Positions 1,679 through 50,765 of a stretch of 64,000 bases of DNA are shown piece after piece. Both the position numbers and the translations under genes were made by a program. The stretch's first letter is position 1; each line of letters opens with the position of its first letter. The notes under the pieces were generated by a model. That model did no database searches. It saw only the letters and a list, made by a program, of their open reading frames with translations, and was not told the DNA's origin. The DNA is from a bacterium (GTDB lineage: Bacteria > Verrucomicrobiota > Kiritimatiellia > CAIKKV01 > CAIYGI01), in NCBI GenBank assembly GCA_025360745.1, contig JANYBP010000043.1, forward strand, positions 10,455-74,454. The letters run 5' to 3'.

Positions 1679-3018
1679 AAATCACCGATAAGTTCGGCAT
1701 CCCGAAAATGATGACGACCTGCACGGAAACCTTCGGGTTCAGCCGTAAAGTCGCCGCCGCCGCCTTGATTTTCGTCGCGGCATTTATACTGACGCTGGTT
1801 ATCGAATTCATCCGTTTCGCGCCCCCGCGCGGCATCGTCATCACGAGCGGACCGGAGGGCAGCATCTTTAACTCGAATGCCGTCAAATATGCCGCGATTC
1901 TTGCGCGCCACGGCGTGACCTTGAAGATATTGCCGTCGCAGGGGTCGGCGGAGAATCTGGCGCGGCTGGGCGATCCCGCCGGTCGTGTCGACATCGGCTT
2001 CGTTCAAGGCGGTGTCACCAACGCCGCAAATACGGCGGAACTGGTTTCGCTCGGGAGCGTCTTTTACCAACCCATCCTGGTGTTCTATCGCGGCACGGGA
2101 ACCGTCGAATTGCTTTCCGGACTGGCCGGCAAGCGGCTGACCATCGGCTCCGCGGGCAGCGGCACGCGGGAGCTCTCGCTAAAGTTGCTGGCCGCCAACG
2201 GCATCGAACCCGGCGGAAACACGGAGTTGCTGGAGATGGAGGGGGATGCGGCGGCGATGGCGCTGATGGCGGGCATGGTTGACGCCGTGTTCCTGATGGG
2301 CGATTCCGCCTCCGCGCAGGTGATTCGCAAACTGGTGCGGACCGACGGCATTCAGATGTACGATTTTACCCAGGCCGATGCCTATACGCGCCGCATCGTT
2401 TATCTGGACAAGTTGCGGCTTCCGAAGGGCTGTCTGGATTTCGGGAAAAATCTCCCGGCGCATGACATCCAATTGATCGGTCCGACGGTGGAACTGATTG
2501 CGAAACCCGACCTGCATCCGGCCTTGACCTATTTATTACTGGACGCCGCCCGCGAAGTTCACGGTAACGCGACCTTGTTCCATGCCCGCGGTGCGTTCCC
2601 CGCGCTCCTGGAGCGCGAGTTTCCGATCAGCGCCGATGCCCGCCGGTATTTCACCACGGGCAAGAGCTTTTTCTATCGTTTTCTACCGTTCGGACTGGCC
2701 AGTCTGGTGAATCGGATGCTGGTGGTATTTGTGCCGATGCTGGTGTTGCTGATCCCCGGCCTGCGTTTGATCCCGGCGCTATACAAGTGGCGGATCACTC
2801 TGGGCATTTATCGCTGGTATCGGGCGCTGCTGGCCCTGGAACGGGAAATTTTCCGGCAGGACGCCCACCACAAGAAGGATGAATTTTTAAGACGACTGAA
2901 TCAAATCGAAGAAACGGTCAACAAAATGAAAGTGCCGGCATCTTTTGCCGATCAATTTTACGCGCTGCGCGGGCACATCGCTTTTGTGCGCGGCCGGCTG
3001 CAAAACAACAACCTGTAG
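1675..3018 (+). CDS. TAXI-family TRAP-type periplasmic solute-binding protein with C-terminal hydrophobic/membrane extension
   Basis: N-terminal TM/signal anchor. TAXI-like motifs IVITSGPEGSIF...NLARLGDPAGRVDIGFVQGGV...LTIGSAGSGT. C-terminal approx 110 aa hydrophobic plus charged tail. Start ATG 1675 is translationally coupled to the upstream gene. Confidence 0.7.
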   Translation: MKITDKFGIPKMMTTCTETFGFSRKVAAAALIFVAAFILTLVIEFIRFAPPRGIVITSGPEGSIFNSNAVKYAAILARHGVTLKILPSQGSAENLARLGDPAGRVDIGFVQGGVTNAANTAELVSLGSVFYQPILVFYRGTGTVELLSGLAGKRLTIGSAGSGTRELSLKLLAANGIEPGGNTELLEMEGDAAAMALMAGMVDAVFLMGDSASAQVIRKLVRTDGIQMYDFTQADAYTRRIVYLDKLRLPKGCLDFGKNLPAHDIQLIGPTVELIAKPDLHPALTYLLLDAAREVHGNATLFHARGAFPALLEREFPISADARRYFTTGKSFFYRFLPFGLASLVNRMLVVFVPMLVLLIPGLRLIPALYKWRITLGIYRWYRALLALEREIFRQDAHHKKDEFLRRLNQIEETVNKMKVPASFADQFYALRGHIAFVRGRLQNNNL

Positions 3019-3049
3019 CGCGCGCGGGCGGTGGCTCCGCGGAATTCGC

Positions 3050-4246
3050 TCAATATATCAGACAGCGCCCACGTTCTTCCGCAAAGTTGCGGAGGGCGGG
3101 TGTCCAACTGGCGGCGATGGCGGTGGGGGTATCGCCGGCGAGCAGCGCCTTACGAACCGTGTCGGACCCGAACAGTTTGTCGAAGAATTCAGGACGGCTT
3201 CGCGACGGCTCCCAGACGCGTTCGATACCATACAACTCCTGGAGTGTGTGAAGGATCGAAACGGCGGTCAAAGCGGGCCGAAACTCATGCGGACGGGTGA
3301 CACGCAAACGCACGCCGTCTATTGCAACGTTGTCGGCATACCCAGGATGGCTGGCGTAGCGGCAGGGCCGGAATTCGACGCCCGGCAGCCCCGCGGCCGA
3401 CAAACGGCGGGCAAGTGTTGCGCCCTTTGTCCAGACCGCGCCAAAAACGGAAAAAGGCCGGACGGTTTTACGGCCGTGATCCAGGGCGCCCAACGCTTCG
3501 AAGGCGACCAGCGCGGGATATGCCTGCGCGGCGGACCAGGAGACGATGGCGGGCGAAGGGCGACGCCAGGGCGGCCAGTGCGCGCCGCGCGCGGCGGCGC
3601 GCCGGTATCCGCGCAGTTTCGCGACACGTAACTTCAGCTCAGGCAGATGCCGGCGCTGGAACCAAAGGGCGGTTTCACCGGGTGTCATCCCGTAACTCAG
3701 CGGGACAGCGACGCAGGCAACGAAACTGCGAAAGGCTGGCTCCGTGACGGGGCCATCGAAAACGCGGGGCAGTGGAATCGGCCGATCGGCGACAATGACC
3801 TGCCTGCCCGCGGCCGCCGCGGCTTCCAGCGCGCCGCAAAGCGTGGCGATGTAGGTGTAGCAACGGCAACCCAGATCCTGCAGGTCAACCACCAGCGTAT
3901 CGATCTCCGCCAGCATGGCCGGCGTCGGAGCGCGGGTTGCGCCATAGAGCGAATGGATCGGAATGCGCCAGAGCGGATGCCGCGCGTCGGCGCATTCCAC
4001 CCCCGCCCCAGCCGCGCCGGCGAAACCATGTTCCGGGCCGAAAAGAGCCTTCAGTCGAACTCCTGGCGCATGCCACAGCCGCTCGGCGCTGGTGACGCCA
4101 TCCCTGTCGACCGCCGCCAGATGGCTCACCAGCCCGATGCGCCGCCCGGCCAGCCAGTCGCCGTGATCGGCCAGCAGGGTTTCGATACCGGGTTGAAAAC
4201 CGACGCCCATGGACATGGCCGGAATATGGCACAAGCCGGGAGCCAA
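3050..4246 (-). CDS. DUF1343 family protein (NamZ-like exo-beta-N-acetylmuramidase)
   Basis: Motifs LLADHGDWLAGRRIGLVSHLAAVDRDG and ALFGPEHGFAGAAGAG are typical of DUF1343. True start is uncertain (several in-frame Met). Convergent with the TAXI gene. Confidence 0.75.
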   Translation of the reverse strand: MAPGLCHIPAMSMGVGFQPGIETLLADHGDWLAGRRIGLVSHLAAVDRDGVTSAERLWHAPGVRLKALFGPEHGFAGAAGAGVECADARHPLWRIPIHSLYGATRAPTPAMLAEIDTLVVDLQDLGCRCYTYIATLCGALEAAAAAGRQVIVADRPIPLPRVFDGPVTEPAFRSFVACVAVPLSYGMTPGETALWFQRRHLPELKLRVAKLRGYRRAAARGAHWPPWRRPSPAIVSWSAAQAYPALVAFEALGALDHGRKTVRPFSVFGAVWTKGATLARRLSAAGLPGVEFRPCRYASHPGYADNVAIDGVRLRVTRPHEFRPALTAVSILHTLQELYGIERVWEPSRSRPEFFDKLFGSDTVRKALLAGDTPTAIAASWTPALRNFAEERGRCLIY

Positions 4247-16503: not shown

Positions 16504-17843
16504 GACCGGCGGGCTCCGGCCGCGGACGGCGCGGGAAGGTGCAGGTTGGAAGGTGGAGGTTGGAGGGTGGAAGGTGGAGGGTGGAGGGTGGAAGGTGGAG
16601 GGTGGAGGGTGGAAGACGAATCGGTTCCAGCAGTACTCGGGGACGGCGCGGCGATGCGCACGGCATAGGGGAGCAGAACGGCGCGACGATGCACGGAGAG
16701 GGAACTGCTCACCGCCAGGCGGCGGGCGGCGCCCGCGCCTTCACGCCAGGTCGCGCCCACCGACAATTCGCATGCGCCCGGCGTCGCGCTGTCCGGAACG
16801 ACCAGCGGCACTTCCATAACCTGCGCCCACATGTCCGCCCCCTCCGAAAGCACATTATCCGCCTGCGCCAGCATGCGGCCACGCTGGCGCAGGTGGATGA
16901 ATCCGACCAGAGCGGAGGACTCCGCCTCCGCGGGCACGGACCAGTAACACCGCAGCAGCAGGCGTTCGCCTGGCGCGACGGGACCCTCCGGCGCGCCGAT
17001 TCCCAGCAGCGTGACGCCGCGATCGAAGGCCGCCAGCGGCGCTTCGGCGCGGGCGATCAATTCCGGCACGGTCACAAAGGTGTAACCGCGCGCCTTAAGC
17101 GCCGCCAGCACCTGTTCCAGAACCTTGACCACCACGGCGCGGTTGAATCCCAACTGGGTATCGTGTCCATCGTGCAGCAAAAGAATGGCGCCCGAACTCA
17201 CCCGCCGCAGCATGTAATCCGCCATGACTTCCGGCGGATCGTTATGCCAATCGTAGGCATGCACCGAGACGCCGACATTGATCTGGTTTTCGGCCCGGCA
17301 CAGTCCCGCCAAACCACGATAGCGGCGGTCGGCGGCGCTGACGCCAACGGCCTTGGCGCCCGCCTCCTCATCCGGCCCGAAAATGCCGAAGGGATCGCGA
17401 AATAACACCGGACGCACACCCGTCACGGCGGCGATGGCGTCGGCGCCGTGACGGATCTGGTCGCGCCGTTCCGCATACGAAATCCGGTCGAAGCGCGGAT
17501 GGTCGTAGGAGTGGTTGCCGATCGCATGGCCGGCCTGCAACATACGCCGCACCGTGTCCGGACTGCGTTCGACATTGGTGCCGACGAGGAAAAAAGTCGC
17601 CCGCACCGACTCGCGGTCGAGAACGTCGAGCACCTGCGAGGTGTAGGGTTCATTCGGACCATCATCGAAGGTAAGCGCCACCACGCGCCCCGCAACCGGC
17701 ACATAACTTACAAGATCGCCCGCTTGAGGCCTGAAGGGCAGCCGTTCCGGTCCGCGGCATCCCGCCAGCGCAAAGACAGCGATAAAAACGAGCACGGAGG
17801 CACAAAGGGCTTTAATAGCGCATCGCACAACTTTCATGCGCAC
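16500..17843 (-). CDS. Polysaccharide deacetylase (NodB/CE4) lipoprotein with Pro-rich repeat tail
   Basis: Lipobox LAGC. NodB motifs TFDDGP...HSYDHP. C-terminal (STLHPPP)n tail encoded by a GGTGGA-type tandem repeat. Confidence 0.85.
   Translation of the reverse strand: MRMKVVRCAIKALCASVLVFIAVFALAGCRGPERLPFRPQAGDLVSYVPVAGRVVALTFDDGPNEPYTSQVLDVLDRESVRATFFLVGTNVERSPDTVRRMLQAGHAIGNHSYDHPRFDRISYAERRDQIRHGADAIAAVTGVRPVLFRDPFGIFGPDEEAGAKAVGVSAADRRYRGLAGLCRAENQINVGVSVHAYDWHNDPPEVMADYMLRRVSSGAILLLHDGHDTQLGFNRAVVVKVLEQVLAALKARGYTFVTVPELIARAEAPLAAFDRGVTLLGIGAPEGPVAPGERLLLRCYWSVPAEAESSALVGFIHLRQRGRMLAQADNVLSEGADMWAQVMEVPLVVPDSATPGACELSVGATWREGAGAARRLAVSSSLSVHRRAVLLPYAVRIAAPSPSTAGTDSSSTLHPPPSTLHPPPSTLQPPPSNLHLPAPSAAGARRS
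16541..16620. repeat. Tandem GGTGGA/GGGTGGA-type repeat (coding, Pro-rich tail); a dispersed second copy of the motif lies at 47150-47200
   Basis: ttggaaggtggaggttggagggtggaaggtggagggtggagggtggaaggtggagggtggagggtggaag seen directly in the sequence. Confidence 0.8.
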
Positions 17844-43243: not shown

Positions 43244-43645
43244 CTACTCCACCCAGGGACTCTGCCTGCTCTCCGGCGTGTAACAATGCAGTTCGATCTT
43301 GTTTCCGTCGGGATCGGCCAACCATGCCTGCCAACTCCGGTCCTTGCCCAGTTTCGGGTCGCTCACTTCCACCCCCTGGCCGCGCAGCGCCGCCACCGTC
43401 GCGGGCAGATCGTCCACCTCCAGGCAAATATGCTTAAAGGACGCTTGCGGAACCGCCGGTTGCACGACCCCCTGGAATATCTCGATGAATGAGCGCCGCC
43501 CGATTTTAAGGTAAGCGCCGAAACGCTGCCCATCCTCCTTCACGAAATCGAAAGCCGGCTTGCATCCCAGCTTGCCGCAATAAAACTCCACACTGCGGTC
43601 CAAATCAGCCGCGTTGAAACAAACATGCGCCAATCCTGTAATCAT
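43244..43645 (-). CDS. VOC family protein (glyoxalase/bleomycin-resistance fold)
   Basis: HVCFNAADLDRSVEFY ... HICLEVDD ... IELHCY paired beta-alpha-beta-beta-beta modules. Confidence 0.8.
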   Translation of the reverse strand: MITGLAHVCFNAADLDRSVEFYCGKLGCKPAFDFVKEDGQRFGAYLKIGRRSFIEIFQGVVQPAVPQASFKHICLEVDDLPATVAALRGQGVEVSDPKLGKDRSWQAWLADPDGNKIELHCYTPESRQSPWVE

Positions 43646-43661
43646 GGGGCGTTCTCCAAAA

Positions 43662-43735
43662 GGGTGCAGGGTTCAGGGTTCAGGGTTCAGTGTGCAGGGT
43701 TCAGTGTGCAGGGTTCGGGGTTCAGGGTTCGGGAA
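43662..43735. repeat. Heptanucleotide microsatellite, (GGGTTCA)n about 9-10 units with GTGTGCA variants
   Basis: cagggttcagggttcagggttcagtgtgcagggttcagtgtgcagggttcggggttcagggttcggg, immediately upstream of the VOC gene start. Confidence 0.85.
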
Positions 43736-43783
43736 ATCTTACAGGATGTTTGGAAGGCATGCTAGAGACGAATAGCGCGGAAC

Positions 43784-43917
43784 GTAATGGGTCAGTTACG
43801 CGGTGGGACCGCCTGAAGGCGGTACACCAAACGCGGGAATAATAAGAAGTAATGCCGTTTGGTGTACCGGCTTTAGCCGGTCTTTAGTCCACCTCCCCTA
43901 TGTCACTGACCCATTAC
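43784..43917. mobile_element. MITE-like miniature inverted-repeat element (134 bp) with 13-bp TIRs and 8-bp flanking direct duplication CGCGGAAC
   Basis: Left: cgcggaac|gtaatgggtcagt... Right: ...actgacccattac|cgcggaac. Internal nested hairpins (ggtacaccaaacg...cgtttggtgtacc; ccggctttagccgg). Confidence 0.6.
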
Positions 43918-43975
43918 CGCGGAACCTGGAAACCCTATTGGCGCAGGATGCCGGCGGGTGTATTCTGAGCACGCC

Positions 43976-44818
43976 ATGCGGCCACCAACTTTTACACGCC
44001 ATGTTCTCGTCGTCGCCGGTGTTCACCTGGGGATGCTGGCGCTGGTGATTCTGATTTCCGTGATCCCTGGCTGCGTCTCGCTGCCGCCGCCTAACAGCCC
44101 GGTGGAATTGATCGTCGAGATTCCCGAACATGAAATGGGACCAGATACGCCGCCGGACCAAAAGACCGATCAGAAGGCCGCGCCCGATCGGATCAAAGAG
44201 GTCAAACCGGAACCGATACCTCTAAACGACAAACCAAAGCAAGATGCTCCCAAGGACGAGGAGGCGATTCCGGAGATCAAGGACAAGCCGAAAGATACGG
44301 TCAAGTCCGATAAGGAGCCGAAGAAGACCAAGACGATCGAAATCAGCCACAAGATTGTCCGTCGCACGCTGAACCTGCCCGAAGCGACCAGCAAACGTAA
44401 AACGACGCTCACCCCGGATGAAATCCGCCAGCTGCTTATCCACGGCGCCACACCCGGAAAACGCGCCACCTTCTCCGACGCCGACATGCGCCGTCTGGCA
44501 AACTCCGACCTGCGTTTCGGACGCGGGGTCGAGATGTCGCGCGACTTGCTCAACTTTGACCAGATCAAACAGATTTTGTTAGGAGCTTGGCAGCAACCTG
44601 GATCGGTGGACATCAATGGATTGATGACAACGGTTCAAATTTCGCTGCGCGCCGACGGCAGGCTGGTCAGTAGTAGCATCGTCAAGGCTTCCGGCAATCC
44701 CCTGATGGATCAATCGGTCATGCAGGCAGTTCGTTCCGTGGTGCGCATTCCCGGCGTGCCCGCGGAATTTCTATCCGCACACCCGAATATCGAAATTGTC
44801 TTCGAATCGCGCAAATAA
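43976..44818 (+). CDS. TolA/TonB-family energy-transducer protein (probably TolA, given the adjacent tolB-pal)
   Basis: N-terminal TM anchor. Long Pro/Lys/Glu/Asp-rich spacer. C-terminal approx 90 aa TonB_C/TolA-like domain. Alternative start at 43958. Confidence 0.65.
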   Translation: MRPPTFTRHVLVVAGVHLGMLALVILISVIPGCVSLPPPNSPVELIVEIPEHEMGPDTPPDQKTDQKAAPDRIKEVKPEPIPLNDKPKQDAPKDEEAIPEIKDKPKDTVKSDKEPKKTKTIEISHKIVRRTLNLPEATSKRKTTLTPDEIRQLLIHGATPGKRATFSDADMRRLANSDLRFGRGVEMSRDLLNFDQIKQILLGAWQQPGSVDINGLMTTVQISLRADGRLVSSSIVKASGNPLMDQSVMQAVRSVVRIPGVPAEFLSAHPNIEIVFESRK

Positions 44819-44829
44819 AGGAACCTCAC

Positions 44830-46023
44830 ATGCTGAAACGTCGTACTTTGATCGCCTTAACCCTCGCCGCGCTGCCATTGCTTGCTCACGCACAGGATAT
44901 CTGGATCACCAAGAACATGTCGGCCAAGTTCTCGATAGACCTGACCGAACTGCGCGCCTCCGCCGGCGGGGGTGCGCTCTTCGTGCAGACCCTGCAAAAC
45001 GACCTGGTGCGCTCAGGCTGGTTCAGCATCGCCCGCCCGGCCACCTTCACCGTGCGCGGCAGCGCCGCAGCCGGGGCCGGCATGAGCGCGGCCTGCGAAC
45101 TTTTGGACAACAGCCGCAACCGCGCGCTGTTGAACAAAGCCTACAACGGGACCGCCGCCGAAACCCGCCGCCTGGCCCACCAGGCCGCCGACGACATCGT
45201 TTTCGCCGCCACCGGCAAGAAGGGCATGAACGGCGCGCGATTGCTGCTCGCCGGCCGCATGGGCGGCGGCAAGGAAATCTTCCTGTGCGACGCCGACGGC
45301 GGCAACTTGCGCCAGATCACCCACGACAACTCCATCAGCCTGGCGCCGCAGTGGGCGCCGAATGGCGAACTTTTCGTCTACACCTCCTTCCGCCGCAACA
45401 ACTTTCAGGAGATCAACCTCGTGGACCTGCGCACCAACCAGCGCACCGTCATCGCCGCCTATCCCGGCATCGATATGACCGGCGGCGTTTCGCCCGATGG
45501 CGGCAGTGTGCTGATGACCCTTTCCAAGGATGGCAATCCCGACATCTATGTGCAGGGCCTGCGCGGCGGCGCCCCCATCCGGCTCACCAAGTCCATCCAC
45601 GCCGGACAGGCCAGCCCCTGCTGGTCGCCCGACGGCAACGCCATCGCCTATGTCTCCGACCATTCCGGCCAGCCGCAGCTTTACCTGATAAGCCGCGGCG
45701 GCGGCGCCGGCAAACTGCTGACCAGTCGCGGCTCGCAAAACGTGGCCCCCGACTGGGGCGGCGAAGGCATCGCTTATTGCAGCCGCCGCGGCGGACGTTA
45801 TGTGGTCTGCGTCATCAACCCCGCCACGCGCGAGGACCGGCAAATCAGTCCCGGCGACTGCGATTACGAGGACCCCAGTTGGGCGCCCGACGGGCGGCAT
45901 ATTTTCTGCACCCGCACCTCGGGCTATCGGTCGACAATTTGCATGCTTGACACAATGGGAGACGCGCCTCTAGCATTGCCCCTTGGTAACGGTGATTGGA
46001 CATCGCCCGCCTGCATGCGTTAG
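44830..46023 (+). CDS. tolB: Tol-Pal system beta-propeller protein TolB
   Basis: Signal peptide. N-terminal TolB domain. Repeated beta-propeller blades (SPDG...YVS; WSPDGN..; WAPDGR..). Confidence 0.9.
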   Translation: MLKRRTLIALTLAALPLLAHAQDIWITKNMSAKFSIDLTELRASAGGGALFVQTLQNDLVRSGWFSIARPATFTVRGSAAAGAGMSAACELLDNSRNRALLNKAYNGTAAETRRLAHQAADDIVFAATGKKGMNGARLLLAGRMGGGKEIFLCDADGGNLRQITHDNSISLAPQWAPNGELFVYTSFRRNNFQEINLVDLRTNQRTVIAAYPGIDMTGGVSPDGGSVLMTLSKDGNPDIYVQGLRGGAPIRLTKSIHAGQASPCWSPDGNAIAYVSDHSGQPQLYLISRGGGAGKLLTSRGSQNVAPDWGGEGIAYCSRRGGRYVVCVINPATREDRQISPGDCDYEDPSWAPDGRHIFCTRTSGYRSTICMLDTMGDAPLALPLGNGDWTSPACMR

Positions 46024-46094: not shown

Positions 46095-46631
46095 ATGACG
46101 GCGAAAACTTGGATCATGGCGGCATTGGTGGTTTCGGTGGCGGTCACGTTTGGCACCGGATGCAAACGCACGAAGGTCAAACCCGGATCGGGTCTGGGGC
46201 AAAACAGCGAGCTGCTGAACGGCACGGGCGGAACCGGGCTGGATGGGAATGGCTTGCCTGGCCGTCCTGGCTTCGACGGCGCGCTCGTCAACGGCCAATT
46301 CCCGACCGTATTTTTCGATTTCGACAGCGCCCAGGTTAAGGAGGGCGAACGCGCCAAGGTCGCGCAGGTGGCCGAGTACCTGAAGGCCAACGCCGGCGCC
46401 ACGGTCGTGCTGAGCGGCCACACCGACGAACGCGGCAGCCAGGAATACAACACCTCGCTGGGCGAAAACCGCGCCCTGGCCGTGCGCGAGGCGCTGACGC
46501 AGGACGGTGTGGACGCCGCCCGTATGCAGACCCGCAGCATGGGCGAAGAGCAGCCCAAGAATCCCGGCCACGACGAAGCCGCATGGTCGCAGAACCGGCG
46601 CGTCGAGTTCCAGGTGCTGGGCAGCAAGTAA
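46095..46631 (+). CDS. pal: Peptidoglycan-associated lipoprotein Pal (OmpA family)
   Basis: Lipobox TFGTGC. OmpA-like VVLSGHTDERGSQEYNTSLGENRALAV...RVEF. Confidence 0.9.
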   Translation: MTAKTWIMAALVVSVAVTFGTGCKRTKVKPGSGLGQNSELLNGTGGTGLDGNGLPGRPGFDGALVNGQFPTVFFDFDSAQVKEGERAKVAQVAEYLKANAGATVVLSGHTDERGSQEYNTSLGENRALAVREALTQDGVDAARMQTRSMGEEQPKNPGHDEAAWSQNRRVEFQVLGSK

Positions 46632-46759: not shown

Positions 46760-47254
46760 ATGTTCTTCGGGTCCGACGGCCCCATGGAATGGATGATCGT
46801 TGCCCTGGCCGTGCTGATGCTCTTCGGCAGCCAGCGCCTGCCGGACATGATGCGCACCCTGGGTCGCCTGAGCGCCAAGCTTTACCGCGCCCGCGACGAG
46901 TTTCGCAAAGAATTTCAGAAAGCCATCGAACTGCCGGATGAATCGGAGGTCGGAGATCGGAGGCCAGAGGTCGGAGATCGGACATCGGAAGTCGGAAGTC
47001 AGCGGGCGGAGGTCGGAGAGCATCCCGATATGACATCCTGTCTACCTCAATCCAATTCTAAACTCCAACTTCCGGCATCTTCCATCCCGACGGCTGACGT
47101 TCAACATCAATCCTTCGAACTTTCGAATACCACCGCCGACCCATCACATTCCACCCTCCACCTTCCACCCTCCACCCTTTACCCTCCACCCGGCCCCGCT
47201 GACCTCAAACCTACGGCCACCGGACCAGGCCATACCTCGGAGTTCGAGGTATGA
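46760..47254 (+). CDS. tatA: Sec-independent translocase TatA/TatB-family protein with extended repeat-containing C-terminal tail
   Basis: MEWMIVALAVLMLFGSQRLPDMMRTLGRLSAKLYRARDEF is a TatA/B TM plus amphipathic helix signature. The tail has EVGDR-type repeats (46936-47010) and a STLHLPPSTLYPPP segment (47150-47200). Stop overlaps tatC start. Confidence 0.75.
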   Translation: MFFGSDGPMEWMIVALAVLMLFGSQRLPDMMRTLGRLSAKLYRARDEFRKEFQKAIELPDESEVGDRRPEVGDRTSEVGSQRAEVGEHPDMTSCLPQSNSKLQLPASSIPTADVQHQSFELSNTTADPSHSTLHLPPSTLYPPPGPADLKPTATGPGHTSEFEV

Positions 47255-50594: not shown

Positions 50595-50765
50595 CAGAAG
50601 CCAGAATTCAGAATTCAGAATGAATTCCCTGTTTTCTGGAGGGTCGGGCTTGCAACTCTGCGAAGCAGCGCTTCGCTGCGTAGCACGAGCCTTCTGACTC
50701 CTGAATTCTGCCTTCTGGATTCTGCCTTCTGGATTCTGGCTTCTGGATTCTGGCTTCTGGAACTG
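50595..50765. promoter_or_regulatory. Highly structured intra-operon spacer: long imperfect inverted repeat built from (CTTCTGGATTCTGG)n tandem units around a perfect GCGAAGC-AGC-GCTTCGC hairpin
   Basis: ccagaattcagaattcagaa ... gcgaagcagcgcttcgc ... ctgccttctggattctgccttctggattctggcttctggattctggcttctgg read directly. Confidence 0.55.

Follow-up and report, generated by a model that had tools for sequence, protein, structure and literature searches.

A non-coding unit of 134 bp at positions 43784-43917 of the window, i.e., the whole stretch of 64,000 nucleotides analysed here, is very probably a MITE, a non-autonomous element that uses the ~13-22-bp ends of divergent IS66-family insertion sequences. 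It lies between two copies of the octamer cgcggaac, and the original prediction of a non-autonomous transposable element with a target-site duplication is now backed by family copies, by site-specific 8-bp duplications and by an IS66-type partner. Mobilization of the miniature would likely occur in trans. A transposase encoded elsewhere (DDE_Tnp_IS66, accompanied by a small DUF6788 protein) would bind both ends, the unit would be inserted where the target is cut with an 8-bp stagger, and the two copies of cgcggaac would have arisen when this cut was repaired. Although elements of this kind are common, the family, defined here together with its autonomous partner, apparently is undescribed so far. 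Literature searches with the terminus sequence returned only unrelated eukaryotic or primer matches, and further searches revealed neither a clear description of IS66-derived MITEs nor any paper on DUF6788.

The 134-bp unit, its 13-bp inverted termini and the flanking 8-bp duplication were recovered exactly where they had been predicted. The left and right copies of the duplication, read directly from the sequence and carrying no strand, occupy positions 43776-43783 and 43918-43925, and the occurrence of an in-register identical 8-mer on both flanks has a probability of about 1 in 65,000 by chance. The left terminal inverted repeat, GTAATGGGTCAGT (43784-43796, + strand), is the same 13-mer that ends IS66-family elements of 1.8-2.2 kb, and the right one, ACTGACCCATTAC (43905-43917, - strand), is its exact reverse complement, the match being perfect over 13/13 positions and 15/16 when extended. 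With a single mismatch, the left terminus can be followed up to position 43799, after which comes a G-rich box, CGGTGGG (43801-43807, + strand); on the opposite side, the C-rich box CCACCTCCCC (43889-43898) precedes the right terminal inverted repeat. The interior contains two local hairpins, ACCGCC-tgaa-GGCGGT (hairpin 1, 43808-43823) and ACCGGC-ttta-GCCGGT (hairpin 2, 43866-43881; ACCGGC-taaa-GCCGGT when read inward from the right end), which are one compensated base pair apart. A central stem (43821-43868), formed by the pairing of GGTACACCAAACG with CGTTTGGTGTACC (43821-43833 with 43856-43868), encloses an AT-rich centre of 22 nt (43834-43855); neither this stem nor the hairpins are assigned to a strand. 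More broadly, positions 43807-43833 can pair with 43856-43882, these two inner arms of 27 nt being 89% complementary. Both nested hairpins named in the original prediction, ggtacaccaaacg/cgtttggtgtacc and ccggc-ttta-gccgg, were found, and the interior lacks coding capacity as proposed, since only short, spurious and overlapping ORFs, none of them a plausible gene, cross the element. The claim that the element is AT-richer than its surroundings needs a minor correction, the difference being only mild (GC content of 53% for the element, 56% for the whole intergenic region and 62% for the window).

Units with the same ends are dispersed among many bacteria. The search by 13-bp termini that had been suggested as a check was carried out on other genomes and on metagenomes, and units of 114-300 bp bounded by GTAATGGGTCAGT termini recur in many of them. 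In a scan limited to a single genome for each species, pairs of termini with a spacing of 90-115 nt were recovered at 21 loci. The 10 genomes concerned belong to at least five phyla and comprise two Acidobacteriota, a Pyrinomonadaceae, an Auribacterota (6 loci), a Planctomycetota (3), a Sedimentisphaerales, a Nitrospirota (3), a Kiritimatiellaeota (2) and two unclassified bacteria. Within these same 21 loci, further copies and variant subfamilies are found, sometimes adjacent or nested. Several copies per genome are therefore seen elsewhere, with at least 6 loci in the Auribacterota and 3 in both the Planctomycetota and the Nitrospirota genomes. At least 120 metagenome contigs matched when the terminus and a G-run were searched for together. 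The interiors of these units are wholly different between lineages, and the ends are constant and followed by the G-run, which the column frequencies of 128 family ends place at positions 18-22. The subfamily of the window element was found in only one other genome, whose copy, the closest to that of the window (L016, 7553-7676), is ~85% similar, lies at an unrelated locus and harbors the same two hairpins, including hairpin 1. A search of JGI metagenome contigs for this subfamily, using the terminus and its hairpin, returned no match. All 120 matches listed in a scan of viral contigs with a 14-mer of the terminus were chance-like, and none was a bounded element with a duplication. At some loci, different subfamilies, including some with the variant termini GTAATGGGTTAGA and GTAAAGGGTCACT, are clustered within a few hundred bases, 4-8 nt apart or nested (L023 5480-6060, L006 3790-3975 and L013 1-290), which suggests insertion hot spots or insertion of the elements into one another.

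Target-site duplications were compared across the family. In a pooled sample of 57 distinct MITE-sized copies with usable flanks, an 8-bp direct duplication located directly outside the termini was perfect in 35 and had one mismatch in 9, and 4 more copies fit a duplication of 9-10 bp. As a control, the right 8-mer was shifted by 4 nt, and not a single copy then had fewer than three mismatches. The duplicated sequences differ at every site and have no consensus. The family is also strongly intergenic, as in silico excision of the element together with one copy of the duplication left a long open frame spanning the junction at just 8 of 39 sites, whereas 27 of 29 control positions located 700 nt away lie in such a frame.

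The cognate transposase, which was to be sought by similarity of the termini, turned out to be an IS66-family DDE transposase encoded within full-length elements of metagenome loci that share these ends. These elements (L242 at 1817-3977, L155, L183, L248, L177, L247, L196 and L226) are 1805-2166 bp long and are bounded on either side by the identical 13-mer; over 17 nt, the left end of the window element matches both ends of L247. A perfect 8-bp duplication, cgtcaagg, surrounds the L242 element. Matching duplications are absent from most full-length copies, which may result from the chimeric assembly of a repeat. Their large ORF of 456-478 aa matches PF03050 DDE_Tnp_IS66 with E values of 2e-32 to 6e-42, as well as zf-IS66, and scores 214-259 bits against the NCBIfam IS66 equivalog NF033517, for which the cutoff is 180. 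Directly upstream of the transposase gene, the examined elements carry an ORF of 108-133 aa coding for a DUF6788 protein (e.g., L155 975-1298 and L247 283-636, with equivalents in L177, L196, L200, L222, L226 and L242), and the same gene order is seen in L176, L183 and L248. No match to TnpA or TnpB was detected in these partner elements, which contain only the two ORFs. IS66-type transposases were present in ~15 of the 120 metagenome loci listed, and these copies are 62-84% identical to one another. Compared with sequenced plasmids, the transposase shares less than 30% identity with all of their transposases, and its best full-length matches include ISDge4-family transposases; consequently, and judging from sequence comparisons, the partner is a divergent, environmental, two-gene subgroup of the IS66 family. 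It is borne mainly by uncultured Planctomycetota, Kiritimatiellota, Acidobacteriota, Nitrospirota and Auribacterota. Within the 64-kb window itself, no IS66 transposase is encoded. The interiors of the miniatures share no similarity with the sampled full-length elements past ~29 nt of the terminus, and an origin of the miniatures by internal deletion is therefore not demonstrated.

An immobile relic would also be expected to have termini identical to those of full-length elements. According to this alternative, a full-length IS66-family element would have lost its interior in place and would never have moved as a miniature. The presence of a single copy of the 134-bp element in the window speaks in its favor, and no further site for the GTAATGGGTCAGT 13-mer is found in these 64 kb, even when 2 mismatches are allowed. 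We nevertheless regard it as quite improbable. The interior is unlike that of any sampled full-length element, and the ~85% similar architecture of L016, with the same two hairpins, occupies an unrelated locus of another genome. Moreover, miniatures of fixed length occur with different duplications inside single genomes, as exemplified by a 139-bp unit that has six or more copies in an Auribacterota genome. Finally, the identical genome was assembled independently three times in Logan, and the contigs break at the boundaries of the element, as they do at repeats: L001 and L002 end 29 nt inside the left terminus, and L003 begins 28 nt before the right end. Logan assemblies are built with k = 31. 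Given that the inverted repeats of the element are too short or imperfect to share 31-mers with each other, breaks located 28-29 nt inside its ends are what a 134-bp unit repeated in the sample would produce, and they are good but indirect evidence that further copies exist there.

The flawless termini and duplication of the window copy fit a fairly recent insertion. Two TolA-like relatives, with 88% and 66% identity, come closest. In the sequence available for them, neither shows a detectable element ahead of its tolA-like gene, and both upstream regions share with the window the promoter-like motif described below and the start of the gene. The original prediction had called for comparison with an empty site in relatives, and this comparison gave a mixed outcome. 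An uninterrupted site at the insertion point would read ...AGCGCGGAAC joined directly to CTGGAAACCC...; in the 88% relative, the place of the duplicated cgcggaac of the window is taken by a single GCGCGGA. This single CGCGGA site is not a clean empty site, for homology fades within ~10 nt of the junction, and all three available contigs of the 88% relative (L025 1-20, and L026 and L027 1-41) end 40-65 nt upstream of the insertion point. The last bases of these contigs, ...GCGTCACGGCCCTTAC, faintly resemble the right end of the element; however, this resemblance does not exceed chance, as 939 of 2000 shuffles reach the same alignment score, and a profile of the 128 family ends did not match this sequence. 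No element was found near the VOC gene of a 75% identical relative either, although the gene order differs in that genome.

The MITE is located in a 330-nt divergent intergenic spacer. To its left, a VOC/glyoxalase-family gene (43244-43645, - strand) is transcribed divergently, its start and the left end of the element being 138 nt apart. To its right lie a TolA-like gene with a TonB_2 C-terminal domain (43976-44818, + strand), a TolB-like gene (44830-46023) and a Pal/OmpA-like gene (46095-46631), followed by TatA and TatC genes; the gene called tolA in the original prediction is thus more exactly a TolA-like one. For this gene, the ATG at 43976, 59 nt past the element, is the probable conserved start. 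A promoter-like motif for this gene, TTGGCG (43938-43943) and TATTCT (43961-43966) separated by 17 nt (43938-43966, + strand), was read directly from the sequence outside the element. The motif matches 8 of 12 consensus positions, a value below the threshold of the scanner, and its promoter role is putative. Counterparts exist in the two TolA-like relatives (TTGGCG-17-TATCCT in L026 at ~67-95, and TTGGCG-17-TATCAT in L028 at ~826-854). As the motif is intact and begins 12 nt beyond the right duplication, the insertion spared it. Just 9 nt separate its end from the conserved ATG, which would imply a nearly leaderless tolA-like mRNA. On the other side, CCTGTAAGAT (reverse strand, ~43736-43745), at ~40 nt from the left duplication, is common to the window and the 75% identical VOC relative. 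The element thus probably lies between two divergent promoters, both of them predicted.

The same spacer contains an array of about ten tandem AGGGTTC heptamers (43661-43730). Other tandem heptamer arrays of ~6-11 units are found in the window at 16534-16615, 46943-47018, 47145-47191 and 50691-50761, and the units of the five arrays (GGAGGGT, AGGGTTC, TCGGAGG, TCCACCC and CTTCTGG) all differ. In the 66% TolA-like relative (L028), heptamers of the GGGTTCA type are present in the corresponding spacer in an inverted arrangement.

A structured regulatory RNA could likewise lie where the element does, 59 nt ahead of the start codon of the tolA-like gene; it would be a cis-regulatory RNA or sRNA belonging to the leader of tolA-tolB-pal or of the VOC gene, with the termini acting as the closing stem of the RNA. 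The 134-bp unit does have a very stable predicted fold, since its RNA folding energy departs from that of shuffled sequences with z = -7.0 for the + strand and -5.9 for the - strand (-7.7 for DNA folding), and its internal hairpins seem to be kept through compensatory changes. This explanation is nonetheless extremely unlikely. A consensus scan of positions 43500-44100 revealed neither a sigma-70-type promoter nor an intrinsic terminator inside the element, and no Rfam family matched anywhere in the window at gathering thresholds; relaxed thresholds produced only chance matches to microRNA hairpins, far under the cutoff. Dozens of unrelated loci spread over several phyla carry these ends, with an 8-bp duplication specific to each locus, and transposase-bearing elements are bounded by them as well. 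In addition, the two closest relatives conserve the promoter-like motif without any detectable element next to it. The dispersed copies with their duplications, the transposase-bearing elements and the lack of an Rfam match largely refute the regulatory-RNA reading, and the proposal that the element supplies a promoter, a terminator or an sRNA is left without support. Most probably, the insertion, which did no obvious harm to either divergent gene, is tolerated and near-neutral rather than a built-in regulator, a neutrality that we infer from these observations. For the tolA-tolB-pal locus, the element is of little consequence, and nothing indicates that it regulates these genes.

The internal hairpins are a distinctive feature of the miniature forms. 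Perfect, GC-rich hairpins with a stem of at least 6 bp and a loop of 3-6 nt were counted in 49 miniature copies no longer than 180 nt, of which 40 have at least one and 28 at least two (e.g., L005, L006, L013, L165, L197, L219 and, in the window, 43808-43823 and 43866-43881). Their total of 69 compares with 4.3 +/- 2.2 in dinucleotide shuffles (maximum of 11). Tiles of full-length elements contain a mean of 0.07 hairpins each, and none was observed within 200 nt of either end in seven full-length elements. When the two hairpins of a pair are read inward from their respective ends, the loop is identical in 12 of the 28 elements and near-identical in most others, whereas the stem is common to both hairpins in only 1 of 28. 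Predicted folds of the miniatures consist of a common closing stem made by the termini and of two or three hairpin arms. In pair counts on hairpin alignments, each of the eight stem pairs has undergone changes in both of its partners; these alignments were built from sequences picked for their pairing, which makes the percentage paired circular and the shuffle test the unbiased evidence. The internal GC hairpins appear to be kept by compensatory changes. As candidate roles, they may unite the ends when the DNA is single-stranded, keep the unit from being one long perfect palindrome, or stabilize RNA.

Two inverted GC-rich hairpins ~40 nt apart in an intergenic unit of ~130 nt are reminiscent of a REP doublet, and the strongly intergenic distribution of the family would likewise suit a REP/BIME/REPIN-type palindrome spread by a RAYT, i.e., an IS200/IS605-like tyrosine transposase instead of a DDE transposase. 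REP doublets are not known to have long GTAA-ending terminal inverted repeats or to make a target-site duplication. In contrast, GTAA termini and an 8-bp duplication are present here and match those of IS66-family elements, and it is the hairpin sequence that varies between subfamilies, the termini being constant. With transposon-type termini and an 8-bp duplication both present, membership in the REP/BIME/REPIN group is disfavored, and we attach next to no probability to it.

Within the preferred reading of an IS66-dependent MITE, we tentatively raise one further idea, which is rather unlikely at present: the miniatures could be old, horizontally spreading structured parasites of IS66-type transposases, rather than simple deletion derivatives, and their hairpins could be under selection. 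Their shared design would comprise a closing stem made of the 13-22-bp ends and the G/C run, with two GC-rich hairpins within it, and the hairpins of one element would tend to keep their loop and to vary their stems through compensatory changes. If this is true, selection would act on the hairpins through some role in single-stranded DNA or RNA. They might recruit or position the transposase or the DUF6788 protein, avert the cleavage of a long perfect palindrome, or act as orientation-independent RNA stabilizers that render insertions harmless. The hairpin pair is specific to the miniatures and raises a small question, namely what makes non-autonomous elements successful. Together with this pair, the interest of the family lies in its breadth across phyla and in its partner, which combines DUF6788 with a transposase. 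For annotation purposes, GTAATGGGTCAGT ends are useful markers of a repeat family that breaks short-read assemblies and that could pass for regulatory RNA.

Bacterial MITEs such as the Correia elements of Neisseria, ERIC, RUP/BOX and Nezha are non-coding units of ~100-300 bp with terminal inverted repeats and a target-site duplication; in general, they occur in many copies, are mostly intergenic and are predicted to form stable hairpins. Size, non-coding nature, termini, duplication, intergenic bias and hairpins are all common to the family described here. It differs from these MITEs in its transposase family and in the length of its duplication; Correia elements, for instance, duplicate TA. 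In addition, its 13-bp ends remain identical in several phyla, and its units have a recurrent pair of GC hairpins and no recognizable fragments of the partner inside.

IS66 elements carrying passenger genes (tIS66) have been described (PMC12888890), and several metagenome units with the termini of this family likewise enclose non-transposase genes, whereas the window copy carries no cargo. Such units contain, for instance, a lipid A acyltransferase gene (L169 13-1521 and L246 1537-3045), a gene coding for a DUF1573 protein (L159 2297-4300 and L202 8574-10577), or other ordinary genes (L206 1047-3621 and L165 2455-4245). Unlike in tIS66, the ends of L169 and L246, and likewise of L219, belong to two separate miniatures of 114-117 bp placed around the gene in a composite-like arrangement, and not to one transposase-bearing element.

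As for the IS66 family itself, its canonical tnpA-tnpB-tnpC layout contrasts with that of the partner elements, in which DUF6788 and the transposase are encoded without tnpA or tnpB; this two-ORF layout more closely resembles the reduced one of the ISBst12 group. The window copy differs further in being a 134-bp non-autonomous element without transposase. Canonical IS66 ends read GTAAGCGTCCGG... and GTAACCGTCCGG... (PMC12888890). IS66-family elements have inverted repeats of 20-30 bp that start with GTAAGCG and generate 8-bp duplications (PMC11946415), a length of target duplication that is also found at the window element. ISDge4 of Deinococcus geothermalis, from the ISBst12 group, has the ends GTAACTGCTCAGCA and an 8-bp duplication (PMC12898284); these ends and the GTAATGGGTCAGT of this family have in common the GTAA start and the pattern GTAAnnGnTCAG. 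Given that ends of the GTAA... type and 8-bp duplications are hallmarks of IS66, the assignment of the element to this family agrees with the literature.
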